From the IMG/VR virus record IMGVR_UViG_3300017991_000096, positions 15,246 to 79,245 of that record: a stretch of DNA of 64,000 bases; one strand, written 5' to 3'. The notes beneath the pieces were generated by a model. It was not told the origin of the DNA. It searched no databases and was given only the letters and a program-made list of their open reading frames with translations. Shown one piece after another: positions 4,916 to 56,678 of this stretch (its first letter is position 1; each line of letters starts with the position of its first letter). The position numbers and the translations under genes were made by a program. Origin of the DNA: a virus.

Positions 4916-4924
4916 GACCCCACT

Positions 4925-32358: not shown

Positions 32359-33641
32359 CACTCAGAGGAGTAAAGACTGCCAAGGCCGCCAAGGCTGCGG
32401 CGAAGGACCGCGGCTCTCGCGGTGGACGCTTCAACCGCCGAATCCAGGCCAAGACCGACGAGCCGTTCATCGGTCGCTTTCGCGGGCTGACCGAGCCCCC
32501 GACGCGCGTCTGGGAGGAGGGCGAGTTGAACAAGCTCGACACTGACGACTTGGTGGAGATCTGTAGCGAGATCCAGGCGGTGTTCAAGGAGGACATGGAG
32601 AAGTCCGAACTCGTTGACGCCATCCTCGACCGCTACAAGAGTCTGGAGCCGGCGTTGAACGCACGCCACTACGTCGATCGCAACAAGGGTCGCAAGGGCG
32701 CCTTCACCTACATGAACTGCGGAGACTCCGAGGCGGCTGTGCTTGGTGACATCCGTACCAAGACGGACTGCGAGATCTGCAAGGCCAGGCTCAGCGGTGA
32801 CAAGGGCGTCGGCTGGCCGCAGACGACCAACTGGTTCTCGTTCTATGACTACCGCAAGGTCCACCGCATCCCGAGCGGCGACGAGGAGAAGGACGAGTAC
32901 GTGCCCTGCACGATGGAGGAGAAGGGCCACTGCAAGCAGTGCTCTCGCAACAAGAAGATCCTCGACCGCGAAGGCATGGACGAGGGCGACTTGAAGTTCG
33001 AGGACAACGACGCCTTCAACGAGTGGTGTGCCAAGACCGGCTATGCGCGGACCTACGCCAACGGTATGCGCATGTTCAACCTTGCCAACAAGTTCGCTGA
33101 TCTCGTGCTGGACCTCTCGGCTCGCATCAGCCGACACTGCCGATCCTGCGGCACCGGCAAGGTGAAGCCCACGGGCGCGTGCTGCCCCCACTGCGGGGAG
33201 GAGTACGACTGGGACGAACTCATCGAGGCAGGGTGGAATCCCGAGGAGATGCAGAACGTCGAATGTCCAGAGTGCGGCGAGGAGGGCGTGCCCGAGCCCA
33301 TGTACGAGTGCTCCAACTGCGACGACGCCAAGCCGGCGCGGCTGTGCGACGTGGACGTGCGGTGCGTGATGACGGGCGAGGGCACGAGCAAGAACTGGAC
33401 GTTCACGGAGCAGTTGCCTGTGCGACCCCTCGACTACACGGACGAGGAGGACGCGGTGATCCTGAGCACGCCCCTCCCCGACTACGACCGCGAACTGGCG
33501 CCCCCGAGTGTGGAGGAGCAACTCAAGTTCATTGGCAAGGCACCCGCTCGCGGCCCGACCCCTTCCGCCCCCGTCGTCGGCGGCAAGAAAAAGAAGAAGG
33601 GTGGCAAGGGCGGGAAGGGCATGTTCTCGAAACGAGGCTGA
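32355..33641 (+). CDS. multi-Zn-ribbon protein, possibly ssDNA-binding (gp32-like position)
   Basis: At least six CxxC pairs, an HeH-like insert and a Lys-rich tail; lies between primase and polymerase. Confidence 0.5.
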   Translation: MTLRGVKTAKAAKAAAKDRGSRGGRFNRRIQAKTDEPFIGRFRGLTEPPTRVWEEGELNKLDTDDLVEICSEIQAVFKEDMEKSELVDAILDRYKSLEPALNARHYVDRNKGRKGAFTYMNCGDSEAAVLGDIRTKTDCEICKARLSGDKGVGWPQTTNWFSFYDYRKVHRIPSGDEEKDEYVPCTMEEKGHCKQCSRNKKILDREGMDEGDLKFEDNDAFNEWCAKTGYARTYANGMRMFNLANKFADLVLDLSARISRHCRSCGTGKVKPTGACCPHCGEEYDWDELIEAGWNPEEMQNVECPECGEEGVPEPMYECSNCDDAKPARLCDVDVRCVMTGEGTSKNWTFTEQLPVRPLDYTDEEDAVILSTPLPDYDRELAPPSVEEQLKFIGKAPARGPTPSAPVVGGKKKKKGGKGGKGMFSKRG

Positions 33642-35855: not shown

Positions 35856-36067
35856 CTGACGACAAGGAACAGAGACTCAAGAGTCTGCGCCGACGGGCGC
35901 ACAACATCGAGACGAGCCGGCTCGACGGGGTGATCGACAGCGTCGTGAAGTCCAAAGGCCACGAACTGTGGAGCAGCGAGCAGGAGTGGCAGGAGTGGCT
36001 CGACGTGCTCAAGGCCGAGAAGCAGCGCCGAGAGGAGGGGACCAATGGGGTGGAAGCGGACAGCTAA
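35852..36067 (+). CDS. hypothetical protein
   Basis: ATGA coupling to the polymerase gene; 71 aa. Confidence 0.5.
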   Translation: MTDDKEQRLKSLRRRAHNIETSRLDGVIDSVVKSKGHELWSSEQEWQEWLDVLKAEKQRREEGTNGVEADS

Positions 36068-36278
36068 GCGCATCATCATCGCCCTGTACTGGGAGTTCTG
36101 CCAGGACGAGGATGACTTCATGCAGTCTGTCGCCGTGGCGCACTTCGACGGCAACACCGCTGACGACGTTGTGGTCGCCCTCCTCGACCAGACCTTCGAG
36201 GGCACCGGCAAGAAGGCAGTCCGCATCCAGCGGACCCGGATCGGAAGGGGGCGGCCCCATGCCACGCAAGTCCGATAA
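36045..36278 (+). CDS. hypothetical protein
   Basis: GGAGG RBS; overlaps both neighbours; 77 aa. Confidence 0.5.
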   Translation: MGWKRTAKRIIIALYWEFCQDEDDFMQSVAVAHFDGNTADDVVVALLDQTFEGTGKKAVRIQRTRIGRGRPHATQVR

Positions 36279-37548
36279 GCCGAAGCTGAAAGGCGGCAAG
36301 CAGAAAGGTAAGGCTAAGGCCAAGCCTGACGCGAAGCTGGCGAAGGTCCGCGACATCGCCAACACCATCAACAAGAAGCTGGGTGGGAAGGGCACCGTGC
36401 TCGTGGGCGCGGACATCGAGGAGCTAGAGTTCCAGAAGGTCCGTACCAACAACCCAGCCATCGACTACGTGACGAACGGCGGCATCATCCGTGGTCGCAT
36501 CACGCAGTTCTGGGGCCCAGAGGGCTGCGCCAAGACGACGAGCCTAGCCGCGGTGATTCGACACTTCCAGAGCCTTGGACTCGTCTGCGGCTTCGCTCCC
36601 GTCGAGGGCTTCGACAAGGGGTGGTGGCGCAACGTCGGCGTGTTCATCCCCTACGGCTCCAAGGAGTTGGAGCGCATGGACAAGGCCAAGCGGAGGCAGG
36701 CAGAGCGGTACAACCTGTTCTACCAGGACGCAGGGTACTCGCCCCTCGTGCTCGTCCAGCACCGGGCAGGCGACGAGGTGCTCCAGATGATCTACGACCT
36801 GACGAAGTCCAACGCCTTCGACTTCCTGGGGCTCGACTCGCTCGGTGCCATCACGTCGTCCCGCATCCTAGACGACAAGGACGTGAGCGACCCGTCCGAG
36901 TATGGCGGTGAGGCCAAGCTGTTCAACACCTTCCAGCGCTTCATGCAGTCGGCGTTCAACACCTACTACGACGACGATGGCAACGCCGACGCCAGTGGCC
37001 GCAACCTGAATCAAACCATGGTTGTCGCCATCAATCAGGCTCGTGTGGCGATCGGTGTACGAGCCATGCGCCGCGAAAAGCAGTTCTACCCGACCGGCGG
37101 GCAGGGGCTCAAACACTTCTGGTCCCAGAGCGTGTTCTTCGACCACATCGCGTCCGACGAGCAGAGCGACACGGTGTCCTACGACGGGCACCAGCGGCGG
37201 GACGTGTACGCCAAGACTTTCAGGGTCTTCGGCCACAAGATGCGCGGCGGGCCTCCCGACCGCGACGCCAGGTTCACCCTTCATGTCAAGAACCACACGC
37301 ACGACGGACAGTCGTGGCGTGCAGGGCAGATCGACACCGTCAGCACGGTGCGAGCGCTGGGCGTCATGCTCGGCGTCATCGACAGATCGGGCGCTCACTA
37401 CAGCTACGGTGGCACCCGCATTCACGGCAAGGCGAACTTTGACGCAGCCCTTTGGAACGACCCCAGCCTCTACCAAGAGGTCTACGACGCAGTCATCGAC
37501 AAGGCGATCGAACAGAGCGGTGCGCACAGCGTACCGGGCACGGAGTAA
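36259..37548 (+). CDS. recA: RecA-like recombinase with Lys-rich N-terminus
   Basis: GGIIRGRITQFWGPEGCAKTT, LDSLGA, INQAR, PTGGQGLKHF, I.RSGA.YSY. Confidence 0.9.
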   Translation: MPRKSDKPKLKGGKQKGKAKAKPDAKLAKVRDIANTINKKLGGKGTVLVGADIEELEFQKVRTNNPAIDYVTNGGIIRGRITQFWGPEGCAKTTSLAAVIRHFQSLGLVCGFAPVEGFDKGWWRNVGVFIPYGSKELERMDKAKRRQAERYNLFYQDAGYSPLVLVQHRAGDEVLQMIYDLTKSNAFDFLGLDSLGAITSSRILDDKDVSDPSEYGGEAKLFNTFQRFMQSAFNTYYDDDGNADASGRNLNQTMVVAINQARVAIGVRAMRREKQFYPTGGQGLKHFWSQSVFFDHIASDEQSDTVSYDGHQRRDVYAKTFRVFGHKMRGGPPDRDARFTLHVKNHTHDGQSWRAGQIDTVSTVRALGVMLGVIDRSGAHYSYGGTRIHGKANFDAALWNDPSLYQEVYDAVIDKAIEQSGAHSVPGTE

Positions 37549-39970: not shown

Positions 39971-40498
39971 ATGCCGAGAATCAAAGTCAAGACCAAGGCC
40001 AAGAGTGAGAAACCCTCCCCTCACTCCCTCGCCCAACGGGTGCTGGAACACCAGCGCAAGAAGTTACGGCTATCCGACCCCAAACGTCCTCTCGACTCAG
40101 ACGGCCAAGAGTTCATCCCTGCCCTGCCTCCCGACATCACCGAGCTAGACGACTCCTACCTGGGTCGCCTGCACGGACAGTTCGTCGCGTTCGCCAACTA
40201 CGTGGAGCACTGCCTCGCGGTGGCCGACGTGGACGAACTGGAAGCCGAGGAGGACGAGAAGGTCACCGCAGCAGAGGAGATTCTGCGGGTGTCCGACGAG
40301 GGACCGAACGCAGCATGGAGGAACGCGAGTGCGTTCCTTGAACCACGGGCCAAAGCCACGCGCAAAACCAAGCGGGAGCGCAAGGCGATGGTGAAGCTGT
40401 TGCAGGCACGACTGCACGGGTGTGAGCGCGCCATCAAGGTGCTCTCGCGCGAGCAGACGCGGAGGGAGACTGAGCGAGAGTGGAGAGATGCCGACTGA
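39971..40498 (+). CDS. hypothetical helical protein (possible recombination mediator)
   Basis: LP.DITEL...L..L...F..Y and LSREQTRR; lies next to the exonuclease. Confidence 0.55.
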   Translation: MPRIKVKTKAKSEKPSPHSLAQRVLEHQRKKLRLSDPKRPLDSDGQEFIPALPPDITELDDSYLGRLHGQFVAFANYVEHCLAVADVDELEAEEDEKVTAAEEILRVSDEGPNAAWRNASAFLEPRAKATRKTKRERKAMVKLLQARLHGCERAIKVLSREQTRRETEREWRDAD

Positions 40499-40802
40499 CA
40501 CAATGGAAATACCCGTTTCGGGGAGCACAAACGCGAAACAACTAGCGGGTGCCATCAGGGCTCGCTACAAGGAGAACCGCGACCTGTCCATCCATCTGGT
40601 AGCGATGGGGATCTCGGCCGTGAGCGCCTGCGTCAAGGGCGTGGTCGAGCTCAACAAGCTGATGTCCAGCATGGGGTACTACGTCACGACGTTGCCAGCC
40701 ATGGAGGACCGCATGGTGTCCGACCGCCGCAACCCTGACGGGGCCAGGGTGGAGCGCACCGTCACGATCCTCTACCTCACCTTGAACCGGCTCGGAGGTT
40801 GA
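40488..40802 (+). CDS. SpoVS-like (Alba-fold) protein
   Basis: Aligns by eye with SpoVS: VS.STN...LAGAI...A.G..AV...VK......G......PA..D.....ERT. Confidence 0.7.
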   Translation: MPTDTMEIPVSGSTNAKQLAGAIRARYKENRDLSIHLVAMGISAVSACVKGVVELNKLMSSMGYYVTTLPAMEDRMVSDRRNPDGARVERTVTILYLTLNRLGG

Positions 40803-42904: not shown

Positions 42905-43646
42905 CCTACGCATCGTCAAAGACGGTCTGTTTGAGACTGTCCAGGGAGAGGGGTTCCTCGCTGGCACCCCCTCCCTGTTCCTTCGCACTGCCGGCTGCAA
43001 CCTTCGATGCGCGTGGTGTGACACGCCCGAGAGCCTGCCCGACTACGATCTGCGGCTCCGGGTCTTTCAGCCCAAGCCCACGTTCAACGCCATCGAGGTG
43101 GATACTGAGATGCTGAGCCTCGCCATCGAGGCATCCATCGGCAGGGGTTTCCACCACGTCGTCGTGACCGGCGGAGAGCCGACACTACAGCAGGGTGCTC
43201 TGCTGCGTCTGTTCGGGCCCCTGCGGAAGCACGGGCACATGCACGTCACCATGGAGACGAACTGCGAGGTGCCTCCGAGCCCCGAGCTACGTCAGGTCGT
43301 GGACCTTGCCAGCCTCAGCCCGAAGCTGCATCGGTGGAAAACCACACAAGGAGCCGAGCGCATCGTCAGCGCCTACGAGGAGTGGGCTGCCATCCAGCAC
43401 GTACAACTCAAGGTCGTCGCCGGCAGCATCGAGGAGGTTCGCAACGCCGTCGAACTGATCCGCGCACTCCGTAAGGTTGGGCGTATCAAGCCCATCTGGG
43501 CCGCTGTCCAGCTAGAGGACTCATGGGTCGAGAAGGGCGCGTTCTTCGACGCGGACGAAGAGGTCGTGCGCAGCATATCCAGCTACCTCGGACGGCACAA
43601 CATCCGTCTGGTCGTCCAACAGCACAAGGTGATGAGGATTCTCTGA
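42897..43646 (+). CDS. queE: 7-carboxy-7-deazaguanine synthase (radical SAM)
   Basis: [37 protein letters not shown]. Confidence 0.92.
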
Positions 43647-44290
43647 TGGCACGTACAGGTAGACCACCCATCCCGCCCGAGGAGAAGGCGCAGCGCAAGA
43701 TCGAGGAGTACATGGGCAAGGTCATCGACCTGCTCATGGAACTGGGCAACGTGAGCGAGGAGGAGCGCGAGTTCCTCGACCTGACCGAGACGCCTCGCCG
43801 CGTGGCGAAGATGTGGGTCCGAGAGACGCTCAGCTACCCGGATCAGCCAGAGGTCCACCTGACCGAGATGGACAAGGAAGGCGACGTGGTGTGCCTTGGC
43901 CCCATCGGCTTCGCCTCGACGTGCGCGCACCATCTCATGCCCTTCACGGGTCACGTCTGGATCGCCTACCTGGCCGACACGAAGTTGCTCGGGCTATCGA
44001 AGTTCACTCGCATCGTCAAGGCCCATAGCAAGCGGCTGCACCTGCAAGAGAAGTTGACCAGAGACGTTCTGGACACGCTGGTGGAGCATCTGGAGCCTCG
44101 CGCCATGCTCGTGGTCATGCGGGCTGGGCACGGCTGCGTGGCTTGTCGGGGCGTAGAGGATGCGACCCAGCGCACGGTGACGGCTGCCGTCCACCTGCCC
44201 GACAGTGATATAGTGAACAACGGCCGCCTGACCGAAGAACTGTACCGAGTCGTGGGCATGGCGGGCGGCCCGTCTGTCGCTTCTTACTAA
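43646..44290 (+). CDS. folE: GTP cyclohydrolase I
   Basis: TPRRVAKMW, STCAHHLMPF.G, GLSK..RIV, LQEKLT, H.C...RGV. Confidence 0.92.
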   Translation: MARTGRPPIPPEEKAQRKIEEYMGKVIDLLMELGNVSEEEREFLDLTETPRRVAKMWVRETLSYPDQPEVHLTEMDKEGDVVCLGPIGFASTCAHHLMPFTGHVWIAYLADTKLLGLSKFTRIVKAHSKRLHLQEKLTRDVLDTLVEHLEPRAMLVVMRAGHGCVACRGVEDATQRTVTAAVHLPDSDIVNNGRLTEELYRVVGMAGGPSVASY

Positions 44291-44301
44291 CCCATACTGG
44301 C

Positions 44302-44330
44302 TTGATGGTCCTACGGGACCGTGAGAGAAT
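44302..44330 (+). promoter_or_regulatory. possible sigma70-like promoter
   Basis: TTGATG-N17-GAGAAT with extended TGn; overlaps hairpin GGTCC-TACG-GGACC. Confidence 0.35.
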
Positions 44331-44374
44331 GGCTATCCACGAGGAGCGCCGCGCTCTCGCCCCACCTTCAACCA

Positions 44375-44409
44375 GGGGTCCTCAGCGAAAGTGCTGAGGG
44401 CCTCTTTTT
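44375..44409 (+). terminator. intrinsic terminator or attenuator
   Basis: GGGGTCCTCAGC-GAAAGT-GCTGAGGGCCTC followed by T5. Confidence 0.7.
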
Positions 44410-44427
44410 CGTCCCCAGGAGAACACA

Positions 44428-44961
44428 GTGGCAAAGAACGACCAAATCAACATCACCCTGTCCAAGTCCGCCCTTCTCGCCCGAGCCAAGGAGTTGCGCC
44501 AGCAAGCCAACGACGCCATCGGGCTCGCCGTCAGGCTGGAGGAGTGGGCCCAGAAGGGCAAGGCAGCCGAGCCCGAGGCTAAGGCCAAGGGTAAGAAAAC
44601 CAAGGGCTCGAAGGGCAAGCCGGCCAAGGCACCCGAGCCGGAAGTGACCACCCCCGAAGGTGGCTACAGCCCCGACGATCTCAAGGGCATGGCCCGCAAG
44701 GAGTTGGCCGCCGTCTACAAGGCTCTCGGTGGCGACCCGAAGGGCCTGCTCATGCCCGACCTTCGCACCCGCATCATGGAGGCCCAGGAGAGCGGTGGCT
44801 ACGAGCGCTCCGACGCCGAGGAGTGCGACATCACTGGCGAGGAAGGCCCTACGTGGTCTGTCGAGCACGACGGTGAGACGTGGAGCGTGGGCGCCGACAT
44901 CATCGAAGCACTCAAGGATGGTCACGCCATGGCGGACCTGATCGAGAACGGCGGCGTCTAG
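44428..44961 (+). CDS. Lys-rich protein with Rho-N/HeH-like motif
   Basis: AGGAG RBS with GTG start; DDLKGMARKELAAVYKALGG..KGL..PDLRTRIMEAQ. Confidence 0.65.
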   Translation: MAKNDQINITLSKSALLARAKELRQQANDAIGLAVRLEEWAQKGKAAEPEAKAKGKKTKGSKGKPAKAPEPEVTTPEGGYSPDDLKGMARKELAAVYKALGGDPKGLLMPDLRTRIMEAQESGGYERSDAEECDITGEEGPTWSVEHDGETWSVGADIIEALKDGHAMADLIENGGV

Positions 44962-45023
44962 CTGCGCAGAGCCCAGAACGCCAGATCGGCCCTACGCCGT
45001 CAATATCGGCCATTTACGGGCAC

Positions 45024-45053
45024 TTGACAGGGCCGGCATACTATGATAGTATG
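45024..45053 (+). promoter_or_regulatory. sigma70-like promoter with palindromic operator
   Basis: TTGACA-N17-TAGTAT (extended TGn); perfect palindrome CATACTAT-G-ATAGTATG at 45037-45053. Confidence 0.7.
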
Positions 45054-45108
45054 TTGCCCCTCTCGAAAAACGCCCCAAACGGGGCTAGGAAGGCAAAAGA
45101 GTAGAACA

Positions 45109-45957
45109 ATGAGTCAAGCAGCACAGCTACGCGACGCCATCAGGGAAGGCAATCAGCCCTTGGTGTCCGCCATTCACGATCTGATCGCCCACATGAAGAA
45201 CGGGGTCAACGGCAAGGCGCACAGCACTGTCGAGCGCCCCGCCTGGAAGCCCAACGAGTGCGACGCCGAGTGCGAACTCACCGGCTGGCCTGTCCCCTCC
45301 GCGTCCCTGGAGGACGTGGACGGGTGGCAGCTTCACCCCGGAGCGGCGCGCTACCTCCGAGAGCACGGGCACAAGCCCGAGGAGGAGCCCGAGGTCCCCG
45401 AGAAGTACAACAGCATCCCGCGGATCCTCGTCCCCGCGGCCAAGGCCAAGAAGGGTGCCAAGCTGCGCTGGGAGTTGGAGGATCTCCCGCACATGACCCG
45501 GCCCGAGCTATACATGGCGGCGGCCGACGTGTCCCTCAACAAGCAGGCCAAGGCGGTCGGCATCGACTACCGCATGGAGAAGTCGGAATGGCTCGTCGCT
45601 GCCATCGCCAGCGTCCACCAGGGCAACGGGGTGCCTGCGCCCGCGGATGAGCGGAACATCGGCCGGTACAAGCCCGACGACGCGCTGCCTGCCGAGCCGA
45701 AGGCCGAGGAGGTCGCCAAGCCGAAGAAGGGCAAGCCGAAGAAGGCGGCCAAGAAGTCGAAGCCGGCTCTGTCGCCCAAGGCAGAGAAGGCCAAGGCCAA
45801 CATCGAGGGTCTGCCTGACGGGCAGTTCAGGGCCCTGCAAGCCATCAACGCTGGCGAGAGTGCCCGCAAGCGCGATGTCGAGCGGCTCATGGAGAAGGGT
45901 CTGCTCACCAGCACTGGCAAGGTGCCGAAGCACGTTGCGGAGGCGTTGGGGGCGTAG
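45109..45957 (+). CDS. Lys-rich protein with HeH-like motif and possible C-terminal winged helix
   Basis: EDLPHMTRPELY..A; KPKKGKPKKAAKKSK; GQFRALQAI...VERLMEKGLL. Confidence 0.6.
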   Translation: MSQAAQLRDAIREGNQPLVSAIHDLIAHMKNGVNGKAHSTVERPAWKPNECDAECELTGWPVPSASLEDVDGWQLHPGAARYLREHGHKPEEEPEVPEKYNSIPRILVPAAKAKKGAKLRWELEDLPHMTRPELYMAAADVSLNKQAKAVGIDYRMEKSEWLVAAIASVHQGNGVPAPADERNIGRYKPDDALPAEPKAEEVAKPKKGKPKKAAKKSKPALSPKAEKAKANIEGLPDGQFRALQAINAGESARKRDVERLMEKGLLTSTGKVPKHVAEALGA

Positions 45958-45960
45958 ATA

Positions 45961-46290
45961 GTGGCGCTCAAAGGGAAGCCGAAGCCAGGCAAGCGTCCTG
46001 GTATGAAGGGTAAGCCCAAGCCGAAGCGCAAGGGCAACCCCAAAGGCAAGTCCAAGCCACCTACACCGAAGCGGGCCGAGCCCGTGGATAAGCCTTGGCA
46101 CGACAACGCGGACGAGTACATCAAGTCCCTTCTCGCCAAGGCGACACTAGAGGAGCTATCCGCCCTGGAGTACGTGATTCAGGACCGGAGCGCTCTGGAC
46201 CCTCGCAGGGGTCGCAACCGCATCACATGGCACATCGTCACAACGCAGATCGCAAGGGAGCAAGTCAAGCGTGACCCCTTCCAAACGTGA
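45961..46290 (+). CDS. small basic protein (K/G/P-rich N-terminus)
   Basis: MALKGKPKPGKRPGMKGKPKPKRKGNPKGKSK. Confidence 0.55.
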   Translation: MALKGKPKPGKRPGMKGKPKPKRKGNPKGKSKPPTPKRAEPVDKPWHDNADEYIKSLLAKATLEELSALEYVIQDRSALDPRRGRNRITWHIVTTQIAREQVKRDPFQT

Positions 46291-46591
46291 GCGTCTGCAC
46301 CTGGCCGAAGTCAACGACAACGGGGGCCCATGGTTCCTCTGCGTCAGCGCCCGCTACCAAGTGCATCATCTGAACGCCATGTTTTCCCGTGGAGAAATGC
46401 CGCGGGCGCTCGTGGACACCGTAGGAGGCATCCTTGGTGACACCACGATCTACCGAGGAGCGAGGCGCCTGTATATGCAGGTCCACCTCGCCCTGTCACA
46501 CCACAAACTCTGGCAGGTCGAAGCGGCTCTGTCAGATCTTCACATCACAACGATCGAGTGTCTCTACACTCGCCCAACCCGGAACATCTGA
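46271..46591 (+). CDS. hypothetical protein
   Basis: Fills the gap in the operon; GGGAG upstream. Confidence 0.45.
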   Translation: MTPSKRERLHLAEVNDNGGPWFLCVSARYQVHHLNAMFSRGEMPRALVDTVGGILGDTTIYRGARRLYMQVHLALSHHKLWQVEAALSDLHITTIECLYTRPTRNI

Positions 46592-46603
46592 ACGGAAAAG
46601 TAC

Positions 46604-47062
46604 ATGGCAAAGACCAAGGGAAGCCCCAAGCAGGGCAAGTTGAAGAAGGCGCTCGCGCGCTACGAGGCAGCCTCCGCTGCGCTCACGGAGTTCAAGGCCA
46701 AGCACAAGAAGGTGCTCGCTGCGCTCCGCGAACTGGAGGCCGAACAGGGCGACGCTCTCGATGAGGTCAAGACGGAGGCCCAGGCAGCTAGCTCTCTCAA
46801 GAAGTTGGGCGAGCAGTCGCTCATCACGGGGGAGCGCTTCCTCGTGACCAACATCATCACCCGCCCGCGGGAGGTGGATTTCAAGGCCCTCACCGAAGCC
46901 TGCCCCGAGGTCATCACCTGGCCCGACATCGCCAGGGTGAACCTCAAGCACTTCGATGCTGCTGTCTCTGCCGGCATCGTCGATCCCGACACGGCAGGCC
47001 AGGTCGTCACGCCTGGCAAGCCCCGTCACAAGGTCGTCCTCAAGCCCCTCGCAGACGCATGA
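46604..47062 (+). CDS. hypothetical coiled-coil protein
   Basis: Strong codon bias; 152 aa. Confidence 0.6.
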   Translation: MAKTKGSPKQGKLKKALARYEAASAALTEFKAKHKKVLAALRELEAEQGDALDEVKTEAQAASSLKKLGEQSLITGERFLVTNIITRPREVDFKALTEACPEVITWPDIARVNLKHFDAAVSAGIVDPDTAGQVVTPGKPRHKVVLKPLADA

Positions 47063-47574
47063 AAACGGCACTCACGGTTTTCGGCGTCGCCCGTGACATC
47101 TACGGGCGCGAGTGGGAGGAGCATCGCCTGTTCTTCTATGACGACCAGGCGCTTGGTCCCAACCCCATCACCCGCTATTCCCCCATCCGGGGGATGATGC
47201 GGATCGCCAAGCGAGGTACTGACCTTGCTATGCCCTACGTCCGCCTCGTGGCAGCACTGGGTCCGAAGGGCAAGGACATTCCCGTTCGCAAGTTGTATAG
47301 CTTTGTGAACGCCTACGGCGACAGCGTCGATGTCTACAAGGTGGACGGCTACGAGGTCCACGACGTTGGCAACGGCCACAACCGCCAAATGTTCATTCAC
47401 GACCGCGATGGTGGCGTCGCGGGCTACTACTACTCCGCCGATCACCAGGCGGTCTACGAAGCACTCGACCGGGCTTGCAGCGCCCTGGTTCGCGTAGAAG
47501 ATGATCTGATCGCTGCGTTCCTGGCCCATGCGGCCGAAGTCATCAACCTCAACACCAACAGCAACAACGAGTAG
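47059..47574 (+). CDS. hypothetical protein
   Basis: ATGA coupling; 171 aa. Confidence 0.55.
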   Translation: MKTALTVFGVARDIYGREWEEHRLFFYDDQALGPNPITRYSPIRGMMRIAKRGTDLAMPYVRLVAALGPKGKDIPVRKLYSFVNAYGDSVDVYKVDGYEVHDVGNGHNRQMFIHDRDGGVAGYYYSADHQAVYEALDRACSALVRVEDDLIAAFLAHAAEVINLNTNSNNE

Positions 47575-47584
47575 GAAACACATC

Positions 47585-48562
47585 ATGGCAAATCTGAGTG
47601 AGAAGAAGATCAAGGGGATGTCCGCTGCCGAAGTGCGCCAGGCGTGCAAGAAGGCCGGTATCGAAACCAAGGGCAAGAAGCTGCCGCAGTTGCGCGAGGC
47701 GCTGATCGCTGCACAGGGCGAGGGCGAGAAGTCGAGCAAGAAGCCCGGCAAGAAGAAGGCCCCGCCGAAGGCCGAGGCAGCCGCCAAGGGTGGGGGCAAG
47801 GGCAAGAAGTCGAAGGGCAAGAGCAAGGCCGAGCCCGAGCCCGAGCCCGAGCCCGAGGAGCAGACCGAGTCCGTCGATCTGGAGGCTCTGGAGAAGTCCG
47901 TGTTCGACAAGATCATCGCCGTGCTGACCCCGAAGATGCGCGACATCGAGAAGCGGGTGAAGGCGCTGGAGGAGTCCTCGACCGATGCGCCCGACGACGA
48001 CGCCGACGACGGGGGCGATGATGCACCCGCCGAGATCCCCGAGAGCCTGAGCGAGTTCGTGGACGAGGACGGCGATCTCAACCTCGACCCCGACGACGTG
48101 GACGGCATGAAGGGTAAGACCCTCAACGACCTGGCCGCCGTGCTGGGCGTCGAGTTCCCCGACGACGCCAAGAACGTCCGCGCCAAGCGGTCGTTCCTCA
48201 AGGAGACGCTGGAGGAGCGCAACGGGGGCGATGACGAGGACGAAGGTGGGGAGGATGAGGATGAGGATGAGGATGAGGATGAGGAGGACATCGAACTGAT
48301 CGAAGGTCCTGACGGGGAGACGGCGCAGAAGTGCAACGACTACTCCGACGTGTCCGTCGAGGACGAGGTCTACATCGCCACTGACGGCGAGTGGTTCCGC
48401 GGCACCGTCGTGAGCAGGGACAAGGACGACGACGGCGACGAGTACATCCACGTCAAGTGCGACGACGGCGACGACGCCCACGTCTACGCTCCCGAGGTCA
48501 ACGACGACCCCGTGATCGTGGGCTGGACCTACGACGAGGAGGACGAGGACGAGGACGAGTAG
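47585..48562 (+). CDS. bipartite basic/acidic protein with two HeH-like motifs and a Tudor/SH3-like C-terminal barrel
   Basis: IKGMSAAEVRQACKKAGI..KGKK..QLREALI; Lys-rich linker; (EP)n; (DE)n; VYIATDGEWFRGTVV...YIHVKCDDGD. Confidence 0.65.
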   Translation: MANLSEKKIKGMSAAEVRQACKKAGIETKGKKLPQLREALIAAQGEGEKSSKKPGKKKAPPKAEAAAKGGGKGKKSKGKSKAEPEPEPEPEEQTESVDLEALEKSVFDKIIAVLTPKMRDIEKRVKALEESSTDAPDDDADDGGDDAPAEIPESLSEFVDEDGDLNLDPDDVDGMKGKTLNDLAAVLGVEFPDDAKNVRAKRSFLKETLEERNGGDDEDEGGEDEDEDEDEDEEDIELIEGPDGETAQKCNDYSDVSVEDEVYIATDGEWFRGTVVSRDKDDDGDEYIHVKCDDGDDAHVYAPEVNDDPVIVGWTYDEEDEDEDE

Positions 48563-48592
48563 TAGCTCCCTCGACCATCTAGCCACTGGAAA

Positions 48593-48626
48593 GGGCGGCT
48601 CCGTTGACGCGGGGTCGCCCTTTCTT
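48593..48626 (+). terminator. intrinsic terminator
   Basis: GGGCGGCTCCGT-TGAC-GCGGGGTCGCCC followed by TTTCTT. Confidence 0.7.
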
Positions 48627-48650
48627 CATGCTGTACCTACAGGAGATCCA

Positions 48651-49082
48651 GTGAACGACAACAAGCCCAACCTATTCGACACGGACAAGCAAGCCGCGAA
48701 GTCCCCACTCGTCCCCACGCGCCACCTGTCCCGCTACGCCGGCAAGAGGTTCCGCCTCGACTACATCGAAGGCCGGAAGCATGGCACGGTCATCGGACGC
48801 ATCGCTGACCTACAGCCTGCGATGGACAACGACAAGGTCGTCGGGGTCACCATCCGCTACTGGCCTGGCTCCTTCAAGCCGAGCGGCAAGGGCAGCTTCG
48901 AGTGGGCCCAGGAGCAGAACCCCGTCACGCACACCGTGGGTCCGTTCACGAGCATCACCCTGCTCAAGTACGAGCTACGCCTGGACAAGAGCCAGAAGGA
49001 CGCCGACATCGTCGAGTGGGGTCACGACAGCTTCGAGCTTACCGGCCCTACCCGTCGTGGAGAGTTCAAGCTGCTGGACTAG
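48651..49082 (+). CDS. hypothetical protein
   Basis: AGGAG RBS with GTG start; beta-rich, 143 aa. Confidence 0.6.
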   Translation: MNDNKPNLFDTDKQAAKSPLVPTRHLSRYAGKRFRLDYIEGRKHGTVIGRIADLQPAMDNDKVVGVTIRYWPGSFKPSGKGSFEWAQEQNPVTHTVGPFTSITLLKYELRLDKSQKDADIVEWGHDSFELTGPTRRGEFKLLD

Positions 49083-49135: not shown

Positions 49136-49402
49136 ATGGACGGAACTACGAAAGTAACCGAACTGAATCTCAACCGACCTGACCCCGAGGTCATCGCTTC
49201 GCTCAAGCAAGCCTTGGCCGATGCGGAGAGCGGGAGACTGCAAGGGTTCGTTCTTGTCGGGTCACTCCTTGGGGGCAGATCGCTCTCTCTCCGCGAGGGC
49301 TCGATCAACAGGCCCGAGGTCGTGGCCTTCGCTGCCCGCATCCAGCACGAGGCTATGATGGAGTGGACTGAGGACGCCGTTGACGAGGAGGAGGACGACT
49401 AG
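49136..49402 (+). CDS. hypothetical protein
   Basis: GGGAG RBS; VIASLKQALADAESGRLQGFVLVG pattern seen in small phage proteins. Confidence 0.55.
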   Translation: MDGTTKVTELNLNRPDPEVIASLKQALADAESGRLQGFVLVGSLLGGRSLSLREGSINRPEVVAFAARIQHEAMMEWTEDAVDEEEDD

Positions 49403-50115
49403 TGCCCGTCACTCTGGAGTTCGCGCCCTTCATGGGGCCCGAGCCCAACGACCTGTCAGACGTGGAGCGGCTCGGTCCCTCGATCTTCCGCTTCCCTGTC
49501 TGGACCCCGGTGGCCTGCGAGGGCTTCATCGACGTGCTGGAGTCTCCGATGCACCGTGGCTGCTGGGCTACGCCCGAGACGGCGGAGAAGGTGGCGGCGC
49601 TGCCCGAGGTCAAGGCAGCGTTCCCCAGCGACTTCGACATCGTGGAGCTAATCCAACGCAGGAAGGTGCGGGAGTTTCCGCTCTACACCATCGAAGGCTT
49701 CAAGGAGGCGTGGGAGTCCTACTCCCTCGACCACATCATCCCCATCCTCGACAGGCTATGGGGTCGTAACCATACCAAGGTCATCGCGCCGTTCGTGTTC
49801 TGCTACCAGCGGCGGAAGGGCCTCAAGTCGCATCTTAGTGACCACTACGATGCGTTCAACACGTTCGTCCTGCCGCTGTCGAGTCCCATGGACTACGAAG
49901 GTGGCGGCACCTACATCCCAGACCTCGACCTGACCATCGAGGACGAACAGGGTCACGCGCATGTGTTCCCTGGCCTCACTCACTACGTCGCTCCCGGTCG
50001 TGACGCCCTCGAAGATGAGGACGACCAGGAGGTCACTCTCCACCCTGAACTGTGGCACCGTACCCATGCACTCAAGCGTGGTAAGCGGTACTGCCTGATC
50101 GGATTCTACGCATGA
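49402..50115 (+). CDS. 2OG-Fe(II) oxygenase, PLOD/P4Hc-like
   Basis: IFRFPVWTP..C, FVFCY, HYD, DYEGGGT, FPG.TH, H......GKRY.LIGF (HxD...H triad and 2OG-binding Arg). Confidence 0.75.
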   Translation: MPVTLEFAPFMGPEPNDLSDVERLGPSIFRFPVWTPVACEGFIDVLESPMHRGCWATPETAEKVAALPEVKAAFPSDFDIVELIQRRKVREFPLYTIEGFKEAWESYSLDHIIPILDRLWGRNHTKVIAPFVFCYQRRKGLKSHLSDHYDAFNTFVLPLSSPMDYEGGGTYIPDLDLTIEDEQGHAHVFPGLTHYVAPGRDALEDEDDQEVTLHPELWHRTHALKRGKRYCLIGFYA

Positions 50116-50774
50116 TTCTCAACAAACGAAGCTCATGGTCCTACTTCGCACCTGGCGTCTTCCAGCGGAAGGTGATGACGCCCAAGCAGTGCGACAACCT
50201 CCTCGACTACTGCATCAGCAACGCGAACGGCTGGATCGGTCCTGAGAACGCGGAGGACATCCACGGATGCCCGAGGGTCTTGTCGGGCTATCCTGACTAC
50301 TTCTCGCCCGAGGACGTGGAGTGGGCCATTCGCAACTACAAGAGGTTCCGCGAGTTCCCCACGGAGAACATGGCGCCCCAGCTACAGCTAGCCATGCTGA
50401 GGTTCGCTGAGGAACTCATGCCCAGTGTTGCTGCCATCCATGGTATCGACCTGCGCCGGCCCCTCGATCCGTTCGTCGCCTGCTATGAGGCGCGAGAGGG
50501 TCACAACGCTTTCCTGTCGCCCCACGTAGACAAGCAACGGGCGGCTGTGGTCGTGCAACTGAACAGCCCCAGGGACTACCAGGGCGGCGGCACCCGGTAC
50601 ACGAATCTCGGCGTGACCGCGCCAGAGAAGGTCGGCATGGGCGTGACGCACACGGGGGCCAAGGCATACGAGGCCGACCCGGAGGAGGCCGAGGAGTTGT
50701 ACCCCCACCTTGTCCACGAGGCGCTGGAGGTCACCGAGGGCGCTCGGTACACCCTCTGCCTGTTCTACCTGTAG
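50112..50774 (+). CDS. 2OG-Fe(II) oxygenase, PLOD/P4Hc-like (paralogue of the upstream gene)
   Basis: FVACY, LSPHVD, DYQGGGTRY, HEALEVTEGARY.L..F. Confidence 0.8.
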   Translation: MILNKRSSWSYFAPGVFQRKVMTPKQCDNLLDYCISNANGWIGPENAEDIHGCPRVLSGYPDYFSPEDVEWAIRNYKRFREFPTENMAPQLQLAMLRFAEELMPSVAAIHGIDLRRPLDPFVACYEAREGHNAFLSPHVDKQRAAVVVQLNSPRDYQGGGTRYTNLGVTAPEKVGMGVTHTGAKAYEADPEEAEELYPHLVHEALEVTEGARYTLCLFYL

Positions 50775-50784
50775 GGGGCCGACG

Positions 50785-52971
50785 ATGATTCTGTACCTCG
50801 CAGGTGGCGAGACGTGGTGGCGATACTTCGACCGCTACGGCATCCGAAACGTGCTGCTGTCGTATCACTACCTGCGAGGTCAGACGGACTTCGCCGAGAT
50901 GGTGGCGTGGATGGAGCGGAGCAAGGCGGAGAAGCAGCCCCGAAGGTTCTTCCTCGACTCCGGTGCGTTCACCTACATGCACGGCGGCCACGACACGCTC
51001 GAAGATCTGAACGAGTACGCCGACGAGTACATCCGCTTCCTGAACACGGACCCAGCCGTCAAGCTGTTCGACGTGGTGGCTGAACTCGACGTGTACCAGC
51101 AGATCGGGGACGAGTCTGAGGACGACGTGTATCGAAGGGTCCAACGTCACCAGGAGAAGATCTACGAGGCGGTAGGTGACAAGATCCTGCCTACCTACCA
51201 GACGGACTGGCTGACGCTCAAGGACTGGGAGAAGGTCTGCGCTGATCCTCGTTTCAAGCAGGTGGGCATCGGCTCGTCGGGCGAGAGCGGCAGCGCTCAG
51301 TTCATCTCGCTGCACAAGAAGCTGATCGCCATCGCCCACAGGCATGGAAAGGTCATCCATGGTTTCGGCCAGACGCGGCTGCAAACCGACATGAAGTACC
51401 TCCGCAACTACGACTCCGTGGACTCGACCACCTGGCTGCGCGCGGATAAGTACGGAGGTACGTTCATCTACCAGAACGGGCACCTGCGCATCCTCAACCA
51501 CGAGCAGAAAGAGCGGCGCGCATGGTTCAAGGGTTACTTCAAGCGCATCGGCCTCGACCCTGAGCGCATCCTAGGAACCCACAAGGACCACGCCCCGCAC
51601 TGCGACGGTCCCAACAGCCAAACCAAGGACTGCGAAGCCTGCAAGGATCAGTTGGAGGAGCTTCGAGCGTCGAGCCTCATCGCTTGGCGGGAGCTTGCCA
51701 AGAAGTTCGAGCGCACTGGTCAACGCCTCGTACAGCATCGGTCCACGCGCACGCTTGACGTTCAACAAACCCAAGGAGTCACCATGACACCAGGACCCAA
51801 GCTGGGTCGAAAGAAGGGCTGGAAGGGCCCACCCGGCACCAAACCCACCTACGATGACTTTGGGGGCAAGAAGTGCCCTCACTACCGGCGGCGCCCAAGA
51901 GAGGTGGCTCGAAACCTCAACTGCTCAGCCTGCCACAACCTCCCGATCTGCCAGGAAGTAGAACGCCATGAGTACCAAGCCCTCCTCGATGACCACACCG
52001 CAACTACTCACCCGGAGATGGGTGCTCCTGATCCACGGCAAGATGGCGACGGAGGAGTTCCGTTCGCTGACGCTGGAACTACTCAAGCGGCAGGCACCGG
52101 AACCTGGAGCGCGGGAACAAGTGATGGCGGAGAGACGAGCACGCCAGATAGCAGCACTGGCGGAGGCCAAGGCGAGAGCAACCGAAGCGCGCGAGAAGGG
52201 TCGGCTGTAGCTCCCGATACCACTACGGGAAGCACTACCCCAGAGGGGGAGGGGGGCGGGAGGTCCTTGGATTCTCGTGAATCCCCCCTAGAAGACTCCA
52301 ACTCCCCACTACAGTCTCAGGATTCTCGTGAATCCTCCCCAAATCCCCCCAATCCTCCACCAGTTTCTCCGAACGGTGCCCCACCTCCGCATAGTCCTCA
52401 GTCATCCCTTGTCCCCACGTCAGCCCTACGGCGTAGAGACAACAGGGAGCTACTGACAACAGGGGGTCTGAACCTGGGTGCCTGGAGACGGGATATCCCA
52501 CGCAACCACTGCGACGTGTGCAACCTGGCGGATGAGTGCCCCAAGTACCAACCCGCATCCGTCTGCGCCTACAACGAGGTCTTCGACCAGTTCGACACGC
52601 GCAACAGCGACGACGTGATGGCGCTACAGCAGGCCCTCGTGGAAGTGGATAAGGACCGGACCATGGCGGCGATTCTCCAAGAGAGGTTGACCACGGGCGG
52701 GCAGATCGATCCCCGCGTGACGCAGCAGATGAACAGCTTTCAGAACCGCATACAGGTGCTTGACGAGATGATGCAGGCACGGAACGCACCACGACCAAGC
52801 GGATTCAACGTCCAGGTCCAGGTCCCTAGTCCTAGCGCACCAGATGGGCGCCCAGGAGTCCTCTCGATGCTCTTTGGCTCAGCCCCGGCTCAGTCCCATG
52901 GGGAACCCACGGAGAAAGAGGAGGAGGGTCAAGGTGCGGTCATCGACACCACTGCAACAGGGCCAGAGTGA
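50785..52971 (+). CDS. TGT/DpdA-like guanine transglycosylase with long C-terminal extension
   Basis: N-terminal ~310 aa: LLSYHY, FFLDSGAFT, ELD, IHGFG, DSVDSTTW; then a low-complexity linker, a C-x2-C-x5-C-x8-C cluster and a helical domain. Confidence 0.75.
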   Translation: MILYLAGGETWWRYFDRYGIRNVLLSYHYLRGQTDFAEMVAWMERSKAEKQPRRFFLDSGAFTYMHGGHDTLEDLNEYADEYIRFLNTDPAVKLFDVVAELDVYQQIGDESEDDVYRRVQRHQEKIYEAVGDKILPTYQTDWLTLKDWEKVCADPRFKQVGIGSSGESGSAQFISLHKKLIAIAHRHGKVIHGFGQTRLQTDMKYLRNYDSVDSTTWLRADKYGGTFIYQNGHLRILNHEQKERRAWFKGYFKRIGLDPERILGTHKDHAPHCDGPNSQTKDCEACKDQLEELRASSLIAWRELAKKFERTGQRLVQHRSTRTLDVQQTQGVTMTPGPKLGRKKGWKGPPGTKPTYDDFGGKKCPHYRRRPREVARNLNCSACHNLPICQEVERHEYQALLDDHTATTHPEMGAPDPRQDGDGGVPFADAGTTQAAGTGTWSAGTSDGGETSTPDSSTGGGQGESNRSAREGSAVAPDTTTGSTTPEGEGGGRSLDSRESPLEDSNSPLQSQDSRESSPNPPNPPPVSPNGAPPPHSPQSSLVPTSALRRRDNRELLTTGGLNLGAWRRDIPRNHCDVCNLADECPKYQPASVCAYNEVFDQFDTRNSDDVMALQQALVEVDKDRTMAAILQERLTTGGQIDPRVTQQMNSFQNRIQVLDEMMQARNAPRPSGFNVQVQVPSPSAPDGRPGVLSMLFGSAPAQSHGEPTEKEEEGQGAVIDTTATGPE
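51968..52210 (+). CDS. nested out-of-frame ORF inside the DpdA-like gene
   Basis: 80 aa, protein-like and helical, exactly where the host frame is low-complexity G/S/T. Confidence 0.35.
   Translation: MSTKPSSMTTPQLLTRRWVLLIHGKMATEEFRSLTLELLKRQAPEPGAREQVMAERRARQIAALAEAKARATEAREKGRL
52269..52335. repeat. two copies of quasi-palindrome GGATTC-TCGT-GAATCC, 51 bp apart
   Basis: Copies at 52269-52284 and 52320-52335. Confidence 0.85.
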
Positions 52972-55966: not shown

Positions 55967-55995
55967 TTGACCTCCCATGGTATCCATACTACATT
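55967..55995 (+). promoter_or_regulatory. sigma70-like (probable early) promoter
   Basis: TTGACC-N17-TACATT with upstream AT tract TAAATAAAATAT in a GC-rich genome. Confidence 0.7.
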
Positions 55996-56075
55996 GTATA
56001 TCCCTTCGGGGCGCCTCGCAGGGCGGGGTCGGAAACTCAACCAACCAACAGAGAAAGTACCAAGGAGTAATCATC

Positions 56076-56678
56076 ATGGCCAAGAACACCAAGAAGTCCA
56101 CCGCCAAGTCCACCACCAAGAACGCCGGCAGCAAGAAGTCCACCAAGAAGTCCGCTCCCAAGAAGGTCACCGCGGCCAAGGGCGGTAAGAGCAAGGGCGG
56201 CAAGAGCGGCAAGAAGAAGGCGCCGCCCAAGGCGGGTGAGGCTGCCAAGCAGTTGAGCGGCGAGGCGTTCCGAAAGTGGAACCACGTCGCTGCCATGCAG
56301 GAGGTCTGGCCGAACGCCCAGCGCGGTCACGTCATCAACGTCCCCAGCGCCACGGTCGAGGGCCGCACCGACATCGCGGTTGTCCTCTACCCAAGCAACG
56401 CGGAGTCGGACGGGTCCGCACTCATCATCCGCAACAGCGGAAAGTACAGCGCCCAGAAGTCGGCCAAGCTGGCCGAGCAGTTCTCCAAGCTGGTCGGGAT
56501 GCTGGCCGACCCTGGCGACGACTGCGACGCGCACCAGAGTGAAGCCGGCGACTGGCTCCACTTCATCGACATGGTCGTCCCTCCCGCCGTCCAGCGGGTC
56601 CTCGACAACCAGACGGCGGCACCCGCCAAGAAGTCCAAGGCGAAGGCCAAGGGCAAGCGCGGCAAGAAGGCCGCCTAG
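56076..56678 (+). CDS. protein with histone H1-like K/S/T/A-rich tails at both ends
   Basis: AAGGAG RBS; MAKNTKKSTAKSTTK...KKSAPKKVTAAKGGKSKGGKSGKKK and C-terminal PAKKSKAKAKGKRGKKAA. Confidence 0.7.
   Translation: MAKNTKKSTAKSTTKNAGSKKSTKKSAPKKVTAAKGGKSKGGKSGKKKAPPKAGEAAKQLSGEAFRKWNHVAAMQEVWPNAQRGHVINVPSATVEGRTDIAVVLYPSNAESDGSALIIRNSGKYSAQKSAKLAEQFSKLVGMLADPGDDCDAHQSEAGDWLHFIDMVVPPAVQRVLDNQTAAPAKKSKAKAKGKRGKKAA

Follow-up and report, generated by a model that had tools for sequence, protein, structure and literature searches.

The genes at positions 44428-48562 of a 64,000-nucleotide stretch of viral DNA (the window; bases 15246-79245 of the 79,245-base IMG/VR virus record IMGVR_UViG_3300017991_000096, estimated completeness 90%) include several in which helix-extended loop-helix (HeH) modules are combined with lysine-rich segments, and they raise the question of what such proteins do in a phage. 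We ask it above all of the product of gene 47585-48562, a protein of 325 aa (the 47585 protein), in which two HeH modules and a Tudor/SH3-like beta-barrel are joined by poly-Asp/Glu linkers. The G+C content of the record is about 63% and every convincing gene lies on the + strand; all features below are given in window coordinates and lie on this strand unless stated otherwise. The HeH block sits between the genes QueD, QueE and FolE on one side and two 2-oxoglutarate (2OG) oxygenase genes and a DpdA-like gene on the other. We tentatively propose, with a confidence somewhat short of even, that the 47585 protein and the product of the gene upstream of it (47059-47574, the 47059 protein) may form an acidic docking hub, anchored on DNA, that serves the module for replication, recombination and DNA modification in this phage. 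The proposal is based on the conserved module order and charge of the protein family, the fusion of family members to a homologue of the 47059 protein, gene order in other phages, an analogue in a cultured phage, and the lack of a recognised single-stranded DNA-binding protein (SSB). The alternatives differ mainly in what the acidic half of the 47585 protein binds.

Modules and charge of the 47585 protein and its family

The start of the 47585 gene is fixed by the N-termini of its homologues, and the encoded protein is strongly acidic (isoelectric point (pI) 4.2, 30% Asp+Glu). In an AlphaFold2 model based on the family alignment of 12 sequences, four modules were confident (residues 1-45, predicted local distance difference test (pLDDT) 84-95; helix 99-132; residues 153-214, pLDDT about 90; residues 238-315, pLDDT 84-91), and the linkers 47-96, 136-147 and 216-234 were disordered. 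From the N-terminus, the protein consists of HeH1 (residues 1-45, 47585-47719, net charge +6; delimited by Pfam, model, structure match and charge), a Lys/Gly-rich basic segment with the string KKKAPPKA followed by (EP)4 (residues 46-96, 47720-47872; predicted disordered, pLDDT <50), and a long helix that ends in the conserved (K/E)RVxALE of the family alignment, A2 (residues 97-133, 47873-47983). These are followed by acidic linker 1 (residues 134-152, 47984-48040, net -9 by charge count, and seen in the model), HeH2 together with the conserved EF.DEDG.L that precedes it (residues 153-214, 48041-48226, net -9; alignment A2, model and structure match), acidic linker 2 (residues 215-237, 48227-48295, net -19; model, charge and repeat), and finally the Tudor/SH3-like barrel (residues 238-316, net -18), an acidic tail (residues 317-325) and the stop codon, which together span 48296-48562.

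A reading of this DNA made from its letters and open reading frames (ORFs) alone, hereafter the sequence-only reading, had expected two HeH modules and a Tudor-like barrel in the 47585 protein, and the model and the structural matches agree with it. Both HeH modules adopt in the model the helix-extended loop-helix fold of about 35-45 residues. By exhaustive structural comparison, HeH1 (residues 4-48) was matched to the Rho N-terminal domain 1a62 (Z 5.6, root-mean-square deviation (rmsd) 1.6, 45 aa) and HeH2 (residues 171-213) to the CDNF C-terminal domain 9i5y (Z 5.4, rmsd 1.4, 42 aa), which we take to be SAP-like. HeH1 shares its fold with the Rho N-terminal and SAP domains (PF07498, PF02037) at Pfam scores below the cut-off (SAP, E 8.8e-4, 19.3 bits against 23.9 bits), and HeH2 is net acidic, unlike DNA-binding SAP domains. 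Among the 12 family members, SAP and Rho_N were each found in two (best E 8.8e-4 and 0.024, respectively) and reached the gathering score in none, and the family profile A2 returned nothing significant from the PDB, where the best matches were a histone-fold protein (E 0.013, through acidic low complexity) and the SAP domain of Hcc-1 (E 0.034).

Two of the charged tracts were perfect hexanucleotide repeats with 100% matches: (EP)4 is encoded by CCGAGC x4.8 (47829-47857) and (ED)6, in acidic linker 2, by GAGGAT x5.8 (48251-48285). Since the repeats are perfect, these tracts are, to judge from the nucleotides, recent slippage expansions at charge-conserved positions. An explanation of the whole protein as a low-complexity artefact was ruled out by the conservation of its folded modules at 23-54% identity. 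A 436-aa Ser-rich ORF on the minus strand (47026-48336), antisense to the 47059 and 47585 genes, was rejected as a mirror ORF, as the + frame has a third-position G+C content (GC3) of 0.88 and homologues.

Close relatives of this phage and of this protein were scarce. The PolA of the window was at most 35% identical to that of any GenBank phage; against 50,697 GenBank phages, a DNA search with 44000-49000 gave just one 98-base match at chance level and a tblastn search with the 47585 protein gave nothing at E<=0.01 or even at E<=10. A word-index search found one homologue, P0002 (45% identity), and a profile search of 1.84 billion representative proteins found 11 at E<=1e-3, five of them at E<=1e-10. 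The ten family clusters examined had 1-2 members each, and nine came from Logan assemblies only, on contigs of up to 90 kb. A related-locus search in IMG/VR gave no relatives for the 47585 protein, the family members P0013 and P0005, the DpdA protein or the DpdA alignment A4, while metagenome scans returned nothing with the query A1 and the contig L002 with P0005. No published description of this family or architecture was found in a full-text literature search. On these comparisons, the component folds are known ones, and the family and its architecture are absent from Pfam and PHROGs, with the exception of a distant analogue in phrog_3724.

All 12 aligned members (23-54% identity to the window protein) had an identical module order, and the charge of the modules was conserved as well. 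The basic segment was net positive in 12/12 members and HeH1 in 10/12; the helix, both linkers and the barrel were net negative in 12/12 (barrel -9 to -26), and HeH2 carried -2 to -10 in 11/12, the exception being P0011 (+3). In P0006, the Lys-rich segment was replaced by two RGRP AT-hooks (Pfam AT_hook in 1/12 members, E 0.0054); the RGRP core was absent from the window protein and occurred in no other of the 12 members. This swap argues that the basic segment is a DNA-binding tract whose exact sequence is unimportant. The head made up of HeH1 and the basic segment, net positive in 12/12 members, would be a plausible non-specific DNA binder, and HeH2 and the barrel, because both are strongly acidic, are more likely to be protein-docking than DNA-binding modules.

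The same acidity could be read in another way, as that of an anti-defence or host-takeover decoy: the C-terminal half would imitate DNA and capture DNA-binding proteins of the host, either nucleoid proteins or the nucleases of restriction and defence, with the basic head staying on phage DNA. DNA-mimic anti-restriction proteins are typically highly acidic, the acidic layout of the 47585 protein is conserved, and its neighbour at 49136 is acidic-tailed too. However, known DNA mimics are compact folds with patterned charge and not disordered poly-Asp/Glu linkers between modules, the acidity is in part a product of recently expanded repeats, and the gene lies in a replication/modification module and not in an obvious early anti-defence region. 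We consider a decoy quite unlikely.

The Tudor-like barrel and its missing aromatic cage

The Tudor/SH3-like end anticipated by the sequence-only reading was modelled as a five-stranded SH3-like barrel (strands 261-266, 269-280, 286-292, 297-301 and 310-315), and Tudor, chromo-barrel and SH3 domains dominated its fold matches. By exhaustive structural comparison, Tudor, chromo-barrel, SAWADEE and BAH folds were matched with Z 5.3-6.6, examples being TbTudor 6if4 (Z 6.3, rmsd 2.1, 56 aa), RDM15 7de9 (Z 6.2), ERCC6L2 6hq9 (Z 6.1), and SMN and 53BP1 (Z 5.3-6.0). Foldseek of the 47585 model against the PDB gave no match at E<=1e-3, the top rows being SH3 and Tudor domains, and phmmer with the barrel alone gave 0 PDB matches at E<=10. 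The gathering scores of the Tudor and Agenet families of Pfam were missed (Agenet, E 0.022, 15.7 against 27 bits; BAHCC1-like Tudor, E 0.16).

The sequence-only reading had further suggested that the barrel could be a reader of modified lysines, and an inspection of the aromatic cage spoke against it. The conserved aromatics of the barrel in the family alignment were Y263, W270, Y287 and Y301. The cage positions, as presumed from SMN and 53BP1, would be I264/A265, F271, C292 and D296; column 271 was variable, 292 was aromatic in 2/12 members and 296 in 0/12, and the only conserved aromatic at the positions so equated was W270 (10/12 members). Conserved acidic turns, D281-x-D-G284-D285 and D293-D-G295, replace the cage loops. 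At these presumed positions, and across the alignment of 12 members, the methyl-lysine/methyl-arginine cage is absent. The end of the 47585 protein therefore resembles the Royal family readers (Tudor, chromo-barrel, Agenet and SAWADEE) in its five-stranded barrel and differs from them in having no aromatic cage and a very acidic surface.

This result bears directly on a chromatin-like or condensate toolkit, in which Lys-rich proteins would coat the phage DNA and the barrel would read modified lysines, for example those hydroxylated by PLOD-like oxygenases. Many proteins of this phage carry K/G-rich tracts, two PLOD-like 2OG oxygenase genes lie at 49402-50774 (Pfam/PHROG), the acidic barrel could bind basic tails, and block-charged proteins with folded interaction modules can drive coacervation. 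Nevertheless, the cage is missing, a search with the family hidden Markov model (HMM) found only one Tudor-like barrel in the genome, and the H1-like and (GK)n proteins counted towards the toolkit are Lys-rich by composition only. In addition, no oxygenase gene lies between the family gene and DpdA on the related contig L002, and no oxygenase homologue was detected in the record G001 or in G002 (69 kb, 75% completeness, thus a weak negative). Such a toolkit seems to us very unlikely. A more elaborate version, in which the PLOD-like oxygenases hydroxylate the K-G tracts of the 44428, 45109, 45961, 47585, 56076 and other proteins and the cage-less barrel binds these tails and cross-links the proteins, so that a chromatin-like coat or a condensate surrounds the 7-deazaguanine-modified DNA, as a system of writer, substrate and reader, would be more improbable still, close to speculation; in a milder form, the barrel may be a new class of reader for polybasic tails.

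The barrel also aligned to two RNA polymerase (RNAP) binders, CarD (4l5g; Z 5.4, rmsd 2.6, 56 aa) and, in complex with the RNAP lobe, the C-terminal domain of UvrD (7egs; Z 5.4), which raises the possibility of a CarD-like architectural transcription factor whose barrel binds host RNAP beta and whose HeH/Lys head tethers it to DNA, so as to redirect or shut off transcription. According to PMC4374960, Myxococcus xanthus CarD combines a Tudor-like domain (CarD_CdnL_TRCF) with an acidic segment and an HMGA-like domain that carries AT-hooks, and the 47585 protein has the same parts list of Tudor-like barrel, acidic tract and disordered basic DNA-binding tract. CarD's barrel binds RNAP beta, and the relative P0006 has true AT-hooks. 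A histone-H1-like domain can reportedly replace the AT-hook domain of CarD (title of García-Heras 2009), an interchange which the AT-hooks of P0006 in place of the Lys-rich tract would parallel. On the other hand, eukaryotic Tudor and chromo-barrel domains score as high or higher (Z up to 6.6), CarD_CdnL_TRCF was not among the matches listed for the 12 members (25 of 29 Pfam families at E<=1), and CarD has the reversed domain order, no HeH domains and no sequence relationship to the 47585 protein. We regard a CarD-like role as rather improbable.

Proposed partner gene, cultured analogue and gene order

The 47059 protein (171 aa) is modelled as an eight-strand beta-sheet domain with a long C-terminal helix (AlphaFold2, pLDDT 83.3, predicted template modelling score (pTM) 0.74). 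In the family members P0009 and P0013 (BLASTP E 2e-5 and 4e-5), and also in P0016 of the P0013 cluster, a homologue of the 47059 protein is fused on at the N-terminus, and the motif F.D.DGG..G is invariant in the 47059 alignment, A3. The ESM Atlas gave no usable match for this protein, and a complex prediction of the 47585 (A2) and 47059 (A3) proteins had a score of 0.00, which speaks neither for nor against binding.

A cultured analogue was found when the 47585 model was compared by Foldseek with predicted viral structures, where one of the two matches at E<=1e-3 was a protein of Serratia phage Serbin (E 3.1e-5). This protein, gp045 (QBQ72961.1; MK608336 28821-29792; 323 aa), belongs to phrog_3724 (E 1.7e-37, listed as 'unknown function') and adjoins PolA, a PD-(D/E)XK nuclease and an NTP-binding protein. 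From N- to C-terminus it has a beta-rich domain, an acidic tract, two HeH-like repeats each with an acidic tract, a basic patch and a Tudor/SH3-like end, and it is collinear with the HeH2, acidic linker and barrel of the family (hhalign E 4.5e-4, probability 33%). Serbin gp045 thus resembles the 47585 protein in its Rho-N/HeH-type helix pairs, poly-acidic linkers and C-terminal Tudor/SH3-like barrel, and the fused relatives P0009 and P0013 in its beta-rich N-terminal domain; unlike the 47585 protein, it has no N-terminal HeH and Lys-rich head and carries its basic patch immediately ahead of the barrel. The HeH-acidic-barrel module has been joined twice, in unrelated lineages, to a beta-rich N-terminal domain, and it recurs in distant phage lineages. 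In tblastn searches, the N-terminal domain of gp045 matched proteins annotated as 'DUF669 protein' and 'SBB protein' in other records, and it is probably a DUF669-type SSB domain. DUF669 proteins were predicted, in PMC4889955, to be phage SSBs with acidic C-terminal tails, and PMC13687109 reports that one DUF669 protein was recently shown to bind single-stranded DNA and to work with an adjacent AAA protein. Full-length homologues of gp045 were present in 12 of 33 matching records, including those of Pseudomonas phages PMBT14 (a phage of P. fluorescens), Almagne and Lebethron. Like the 47585 gene, gp045 lies in a replication module; unlike the window phage, Serbin has no queuosine or DpdA cluster, and its authors report no queuosine cluster (PMC6509536).

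The setting of the 47585 gene differs in this respect. Pfam and PHROG scans identified QueD (42356), QueE (42897), FolE (43523-44290) and QueC (63010), as well as a DpdA-like gene (50785-52971) whose product has a terminase-like domain fused to it, and with its QueD, QueE, FolE, QueC and DpdA genes the phage is, on gene content, one that modifies its own DNA with 7-deazaguanine. In 3/3 genomic contexts recovered, the family gene was a few genes upstream of a DpdA-like gene. The first context is the window. The second, L002, is a 6.1-kb contig with P0005 and carries in order a 46604-like protein (BLASTP E 1.3e-8), a 47059-like protein (1.7e-9), the family member (4.7e-28), a 48651-like protein (5e-5), an acidic-tail protein and the DpdA fusion (1.8e-153), so that the family gene is two ORFs upstream of DpdA. 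The third, L004, comes from an IMG/VR record of 69 kb, retrieved with a DpdA motif, and has the order QueD, QueE, FolE, several unrelated ORFs, the family member, one ORF and DpdA; its family member is a divergent protein of 426 aa (HMM E 7e-10; hhalign probability 90%, E 1.4e-6). The record G001 ends just upstream of its DpdA and is uninformative on the family gene. In the window and L002 the DpdA and terminase-like domains are fused, unlike in L004, where we observed them as separate ORFs about 3 kb apart on the minus strand (7535-8509 and 3243-4433).

This order would suit an accessory of 7-deazaguanine modification, with the HeH/Lys-rich head on phage DNA and the acidic barrel end positioning DpdA or the preQ0 enzymes on newly made DNA. 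It finds its support in the three contexts, whose common proteins are only 25-40% identical and whose intervening genes differ. However, the three phages form one lineage, so the order may be inherited, and the sample is biased to DpdA phages, because L003 and L004 were found through the DpdA motif and the window and L002 share the DpdA fusion. Moreover, Serbin has an analogous protein and no queuosine cluster (PMC6509536), and Bacillus phage BCD7 has a Que-DpdA cluster but gave nothing at E<=10 when searched with the family profile. A dedicated modification accessory is in our view unlikely.

Pfam and PHROG scans placed a helicase, DenV, DnaB, a primase, PolA, a RecA-like protein and a PD-(D/E)XK nuclease in the replication block of the window, and in the whole 79-kb record there was no match to PF00436, PF05037 (DUF669), PF10991 or PF08804 at E<=1. 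The SSB of this phage thus seems to be unrecognised or missing, despite its PolA, DnaB, primase and RecA-like protein. For the proposed docking hub, we suppose that HeH1 and the disordered Lys-rich segment would bind DNA without sequence specificity, and that the acidic remainder (long helix, HeH2, cage-less barrel and poly-Asp/Glu linkers) would be a protein-docking tail comparable to the acidic C-terminal tails of SSBs. Such partner-recruiting tails are present in N4-type SSBs, E. coli SSB, T7 gp2.5 and T4 gp32. The acidic tail would either fold back on its own basic head or recruit basic partners, for which the Lys-rich tails of neighbouring phage proteins, or the replication, recombination and DpdA enzymes, would be candidates. 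The 47059 beta-sheet protein would act with the 47585 protein as one unit, possibly as its nucleic-acid-binding part. The likeness to DUF669-type SSBs, as described in PMC4889955 and PMC13687109, lies in an acidic tail on a DNA-binding unit and in partner recruitment. In contrast to SSB tails, that of the 47585 protein is about 230 residues long with two folded modules, and its head is HeH plus Lys-rich and not an oligonucleotide/oligosaccharide-binding (OB) fold. DNA binding, partner docking, the biological role and an SSB-like role of the 47059 protein are what we infer from sequences and models.

Several observations weigh against the docking hub. As the record is about 90% complete, the lack of a recognisable SSB counts for little. 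The 47059 model had no clear fold match (Foldseek, none at E<=1e-3), and its best structural matches, a levivirus coat protein dimer (Z 5.5) and Pur-alpha (Z 5.3), are at noise level; its nucleic-acid-binding role is therefore a guess. It had no similarity to the Serbin N-terminal domain by hhalign. No 47059 homologue was detected in G001 or G002, although G002 has a family member. As for the cultured analogue, Pfam makes no DUF669 call on Serbin gp045, so that this link rests on the annotations of other records, and neither the window protein, the L004 member nor P0013 matched phrog_3724 at E<=0.1. All fold matches described here have a middling Z below 8 and indicate fold class only, the Pfam SAP, Agenet and Tudor matches are all under the cut-off, and gene order among the related phages may reflect shared descent only. 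If the docking hub is nevertheless real, the module would correspond, in more elaborate form, to the short acidic tails with which SSBs organise replisomes, and would offer a testable way into the coupling of replication and recombination with DNA hypermodification in phages. The only curated family that unites HeH modules, poly-acidic linkers and a Tudor-like barrel is phrog_3724, of unassigned function, and its homologues in phages of non-pathogenic Pseudomonas make the module experimentally tractable.

Neighbouring genes and other lysine-rich proteins of the window

Upstream of the 47585 and 47059 genes, the block begins with a 177-aa protein (44428-44961, pI 5.0) without a Pfam or PHROG family, which has an N-terminal helix region, a Lys-rich stretch (residues 43-70, 44554-44637), an HeH (residues 79-123, 44662-44796) and a C-terminal ECDITG module (residues 132-166, 44821-44925). 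It is followed by a 282-aa protein (45109-45957, pI 9.0), the start of which is fixed by the N-terminus of its single homologue P0004, with an ECELTG module (residues 54-88, 45268-45372; kept as ECDLSG in P0004), an HeH-like stretch (residues about 124-170, 45478-45618), a Lys-rich stretch (residues 197-229, 45697-45795) and a helical C-terminal region. The motif EC[DE][IL]TG, said by the sequence-only reading to be common to these two proteins, does exist in both, though the resemblance by BLASTP is weak (12/36 identities, E 0.026). The 44428 and 45109 proteins, small and with HeH-type and Lys-rich stretches, are probably auxiliary DNA binders, but they are near-orphans.

Five HeH-type stretches had been listed from the sequence, and all were found at or near their positions on the + strand (about 32510, in an ORF with a likely start at 32355; 44662-44796; 45478-45618; 47585-47719; 48041-48226), but the evidence for them is uneven from copy to copy. 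The pattern written for them is a loose consensus, a relaxed regular expression of which matched only 1/5, the copy at 44680, in a six-frame translation of the 79-kb genome, and an HMM of the five copies found no sixth among 1142 six-frame segments (next best E 0.15). The 44428 copy was picked up by a family HeH2 HMM built without it (E 5.4e-4, the sole non-self match below 0.1) and by hhalign (E 6e-4, probability 29%); the 45109 copy was aligned to HeH1 by hhalign (E 1.3e-3, probability 18%) and missed by the family HMMs; the 32510 copy gained nothing from either comparison. SAP and Rho_N of Pfam gave nothing at E<=10 for the 44428 protein, the 45109 protein or the ORF 32091-33638 that holds the 32510 motif. 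Support for an HeH is thus modest for 44428, weak for 45109 and nil for 32510.

K/G-rich tracts were frequent, occurring in the 44428, 45109, 45961, 46604, 47585 and 56076 proteins, the RecA-like protein and the tail of the 32355 protein. In the RecA-like protein (35968-37548), we observed a Lys-rich insertion (residues 97-129 of the ORF as called), a further K-rich tract on a DNA-handling protein of this phage. The KKKAPPKA of the 47585 basic segment (47750-47773) recurs as GKKKAPPKAG in the 56076 protein (56076-56678), P0002, the closest homologue, keeps it unchanged, and strings like K-K-x-A-P-P-K are present in several further members of the family; rather than a matter of composition, KKKAPPKA may be a short linear motif. 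The 56076 protein itself had been called H1-like, which did not hold: in 55977-56675 no Linker_histone winged helix and no Pfam family at E<=10 was found, only K-rich tracts. The (GK)n ORF at 63810 is real, yet Lys-rich by composition only, and it runs off the end of the record. A coherent chromatin-like toolkit, into which these proteins had been gathered, is not borne out, the 32510 motif being without support as well. Because the 56076 protein lacks a linker-histone domain, the (GK)n ORF is cut by the record end and the SpoVS gene is tied to the HeH block by position alone, a chromatin-like system is not shown.

The sites and remaining genes of this region were as follows. A terminator-like hairpin (44374-44405, consensus scan, a 14-bp stem followed by a T run; 12 such sites against 8.1 expected in shuffles) lies between FolE and the 44428 gene, and because of it the HeH block may be a transcription unit separate from QueD-QueE-FolE. 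A promoter-like site (45024-45052; TTGACA, 17-nt spacer, TAGTAT, with TG; 10/12 matches) lies just upstream of the 45109 gene, in a region where the number of such sites, 2 against 1.6 in shuffles, is not above the shuffles. Between the 45109 and 47059 genes are a 109-aa protein of pI 10.4 with an N-terminal K/P/G-rich tract at residues 2-38 (45961-46290, no Pfam or PHROG family found), a 106-aa hypothetical ORF with the weakest coding status in the block (46271-46591, GC3 0.70), and a protein of 152 aa (46604-47062) in which a Lys-rich N-terminus and a coiled coil precede a C-terminal alpha/beta domain. The homologue of the 46604 protein is upstream of the family gene in L002 (ORF 66-491, the match given above), and its ESM Atlas neighbours, which are a lead only, are phage clusters with a minority of Phage_Mu_Gam, Sipho_Gp157, DUF7173 and DUF3164; the protein may be a Gam/Gp157-like DNA-end or recombination accessory. 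Downstream of the family gene lie a 143-aa protein that is its conserved neighbour (48651-49082, matched to L002 ORF 1966-2358) and an 88-aa protein with an acidic tail, placed before the oxygenase and DpdA genes (49136-49402); its positional counterpart in L002 (ORF 2355-2711) likewise has a poly-Asp tail at its end but gives no BLASTP match to the 49136 protein at E<=1.

Further upstream, tail and baseplate genes extend to about 22 kb of the window (Pfam and PHROG scans). The SpoVS-like gene (40422-40802) was correctly named from its sequence, as its match to PF04232 is above the gathering score (32.3 against 24 bits, E 8.5e-8); SpoVS proteins presumably have an Alba-like fold. In the window, about 1.5 kb separates this gene from QueD downstream of it; in Bacillus phage BCD7 (L006), a 'sporulation protein' gene (4794-5066) is about 0.7 kb upstream of QueD. 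SpoVS-like proteins may thus be recurrent neighbours of phage Que-DpdA clusters.

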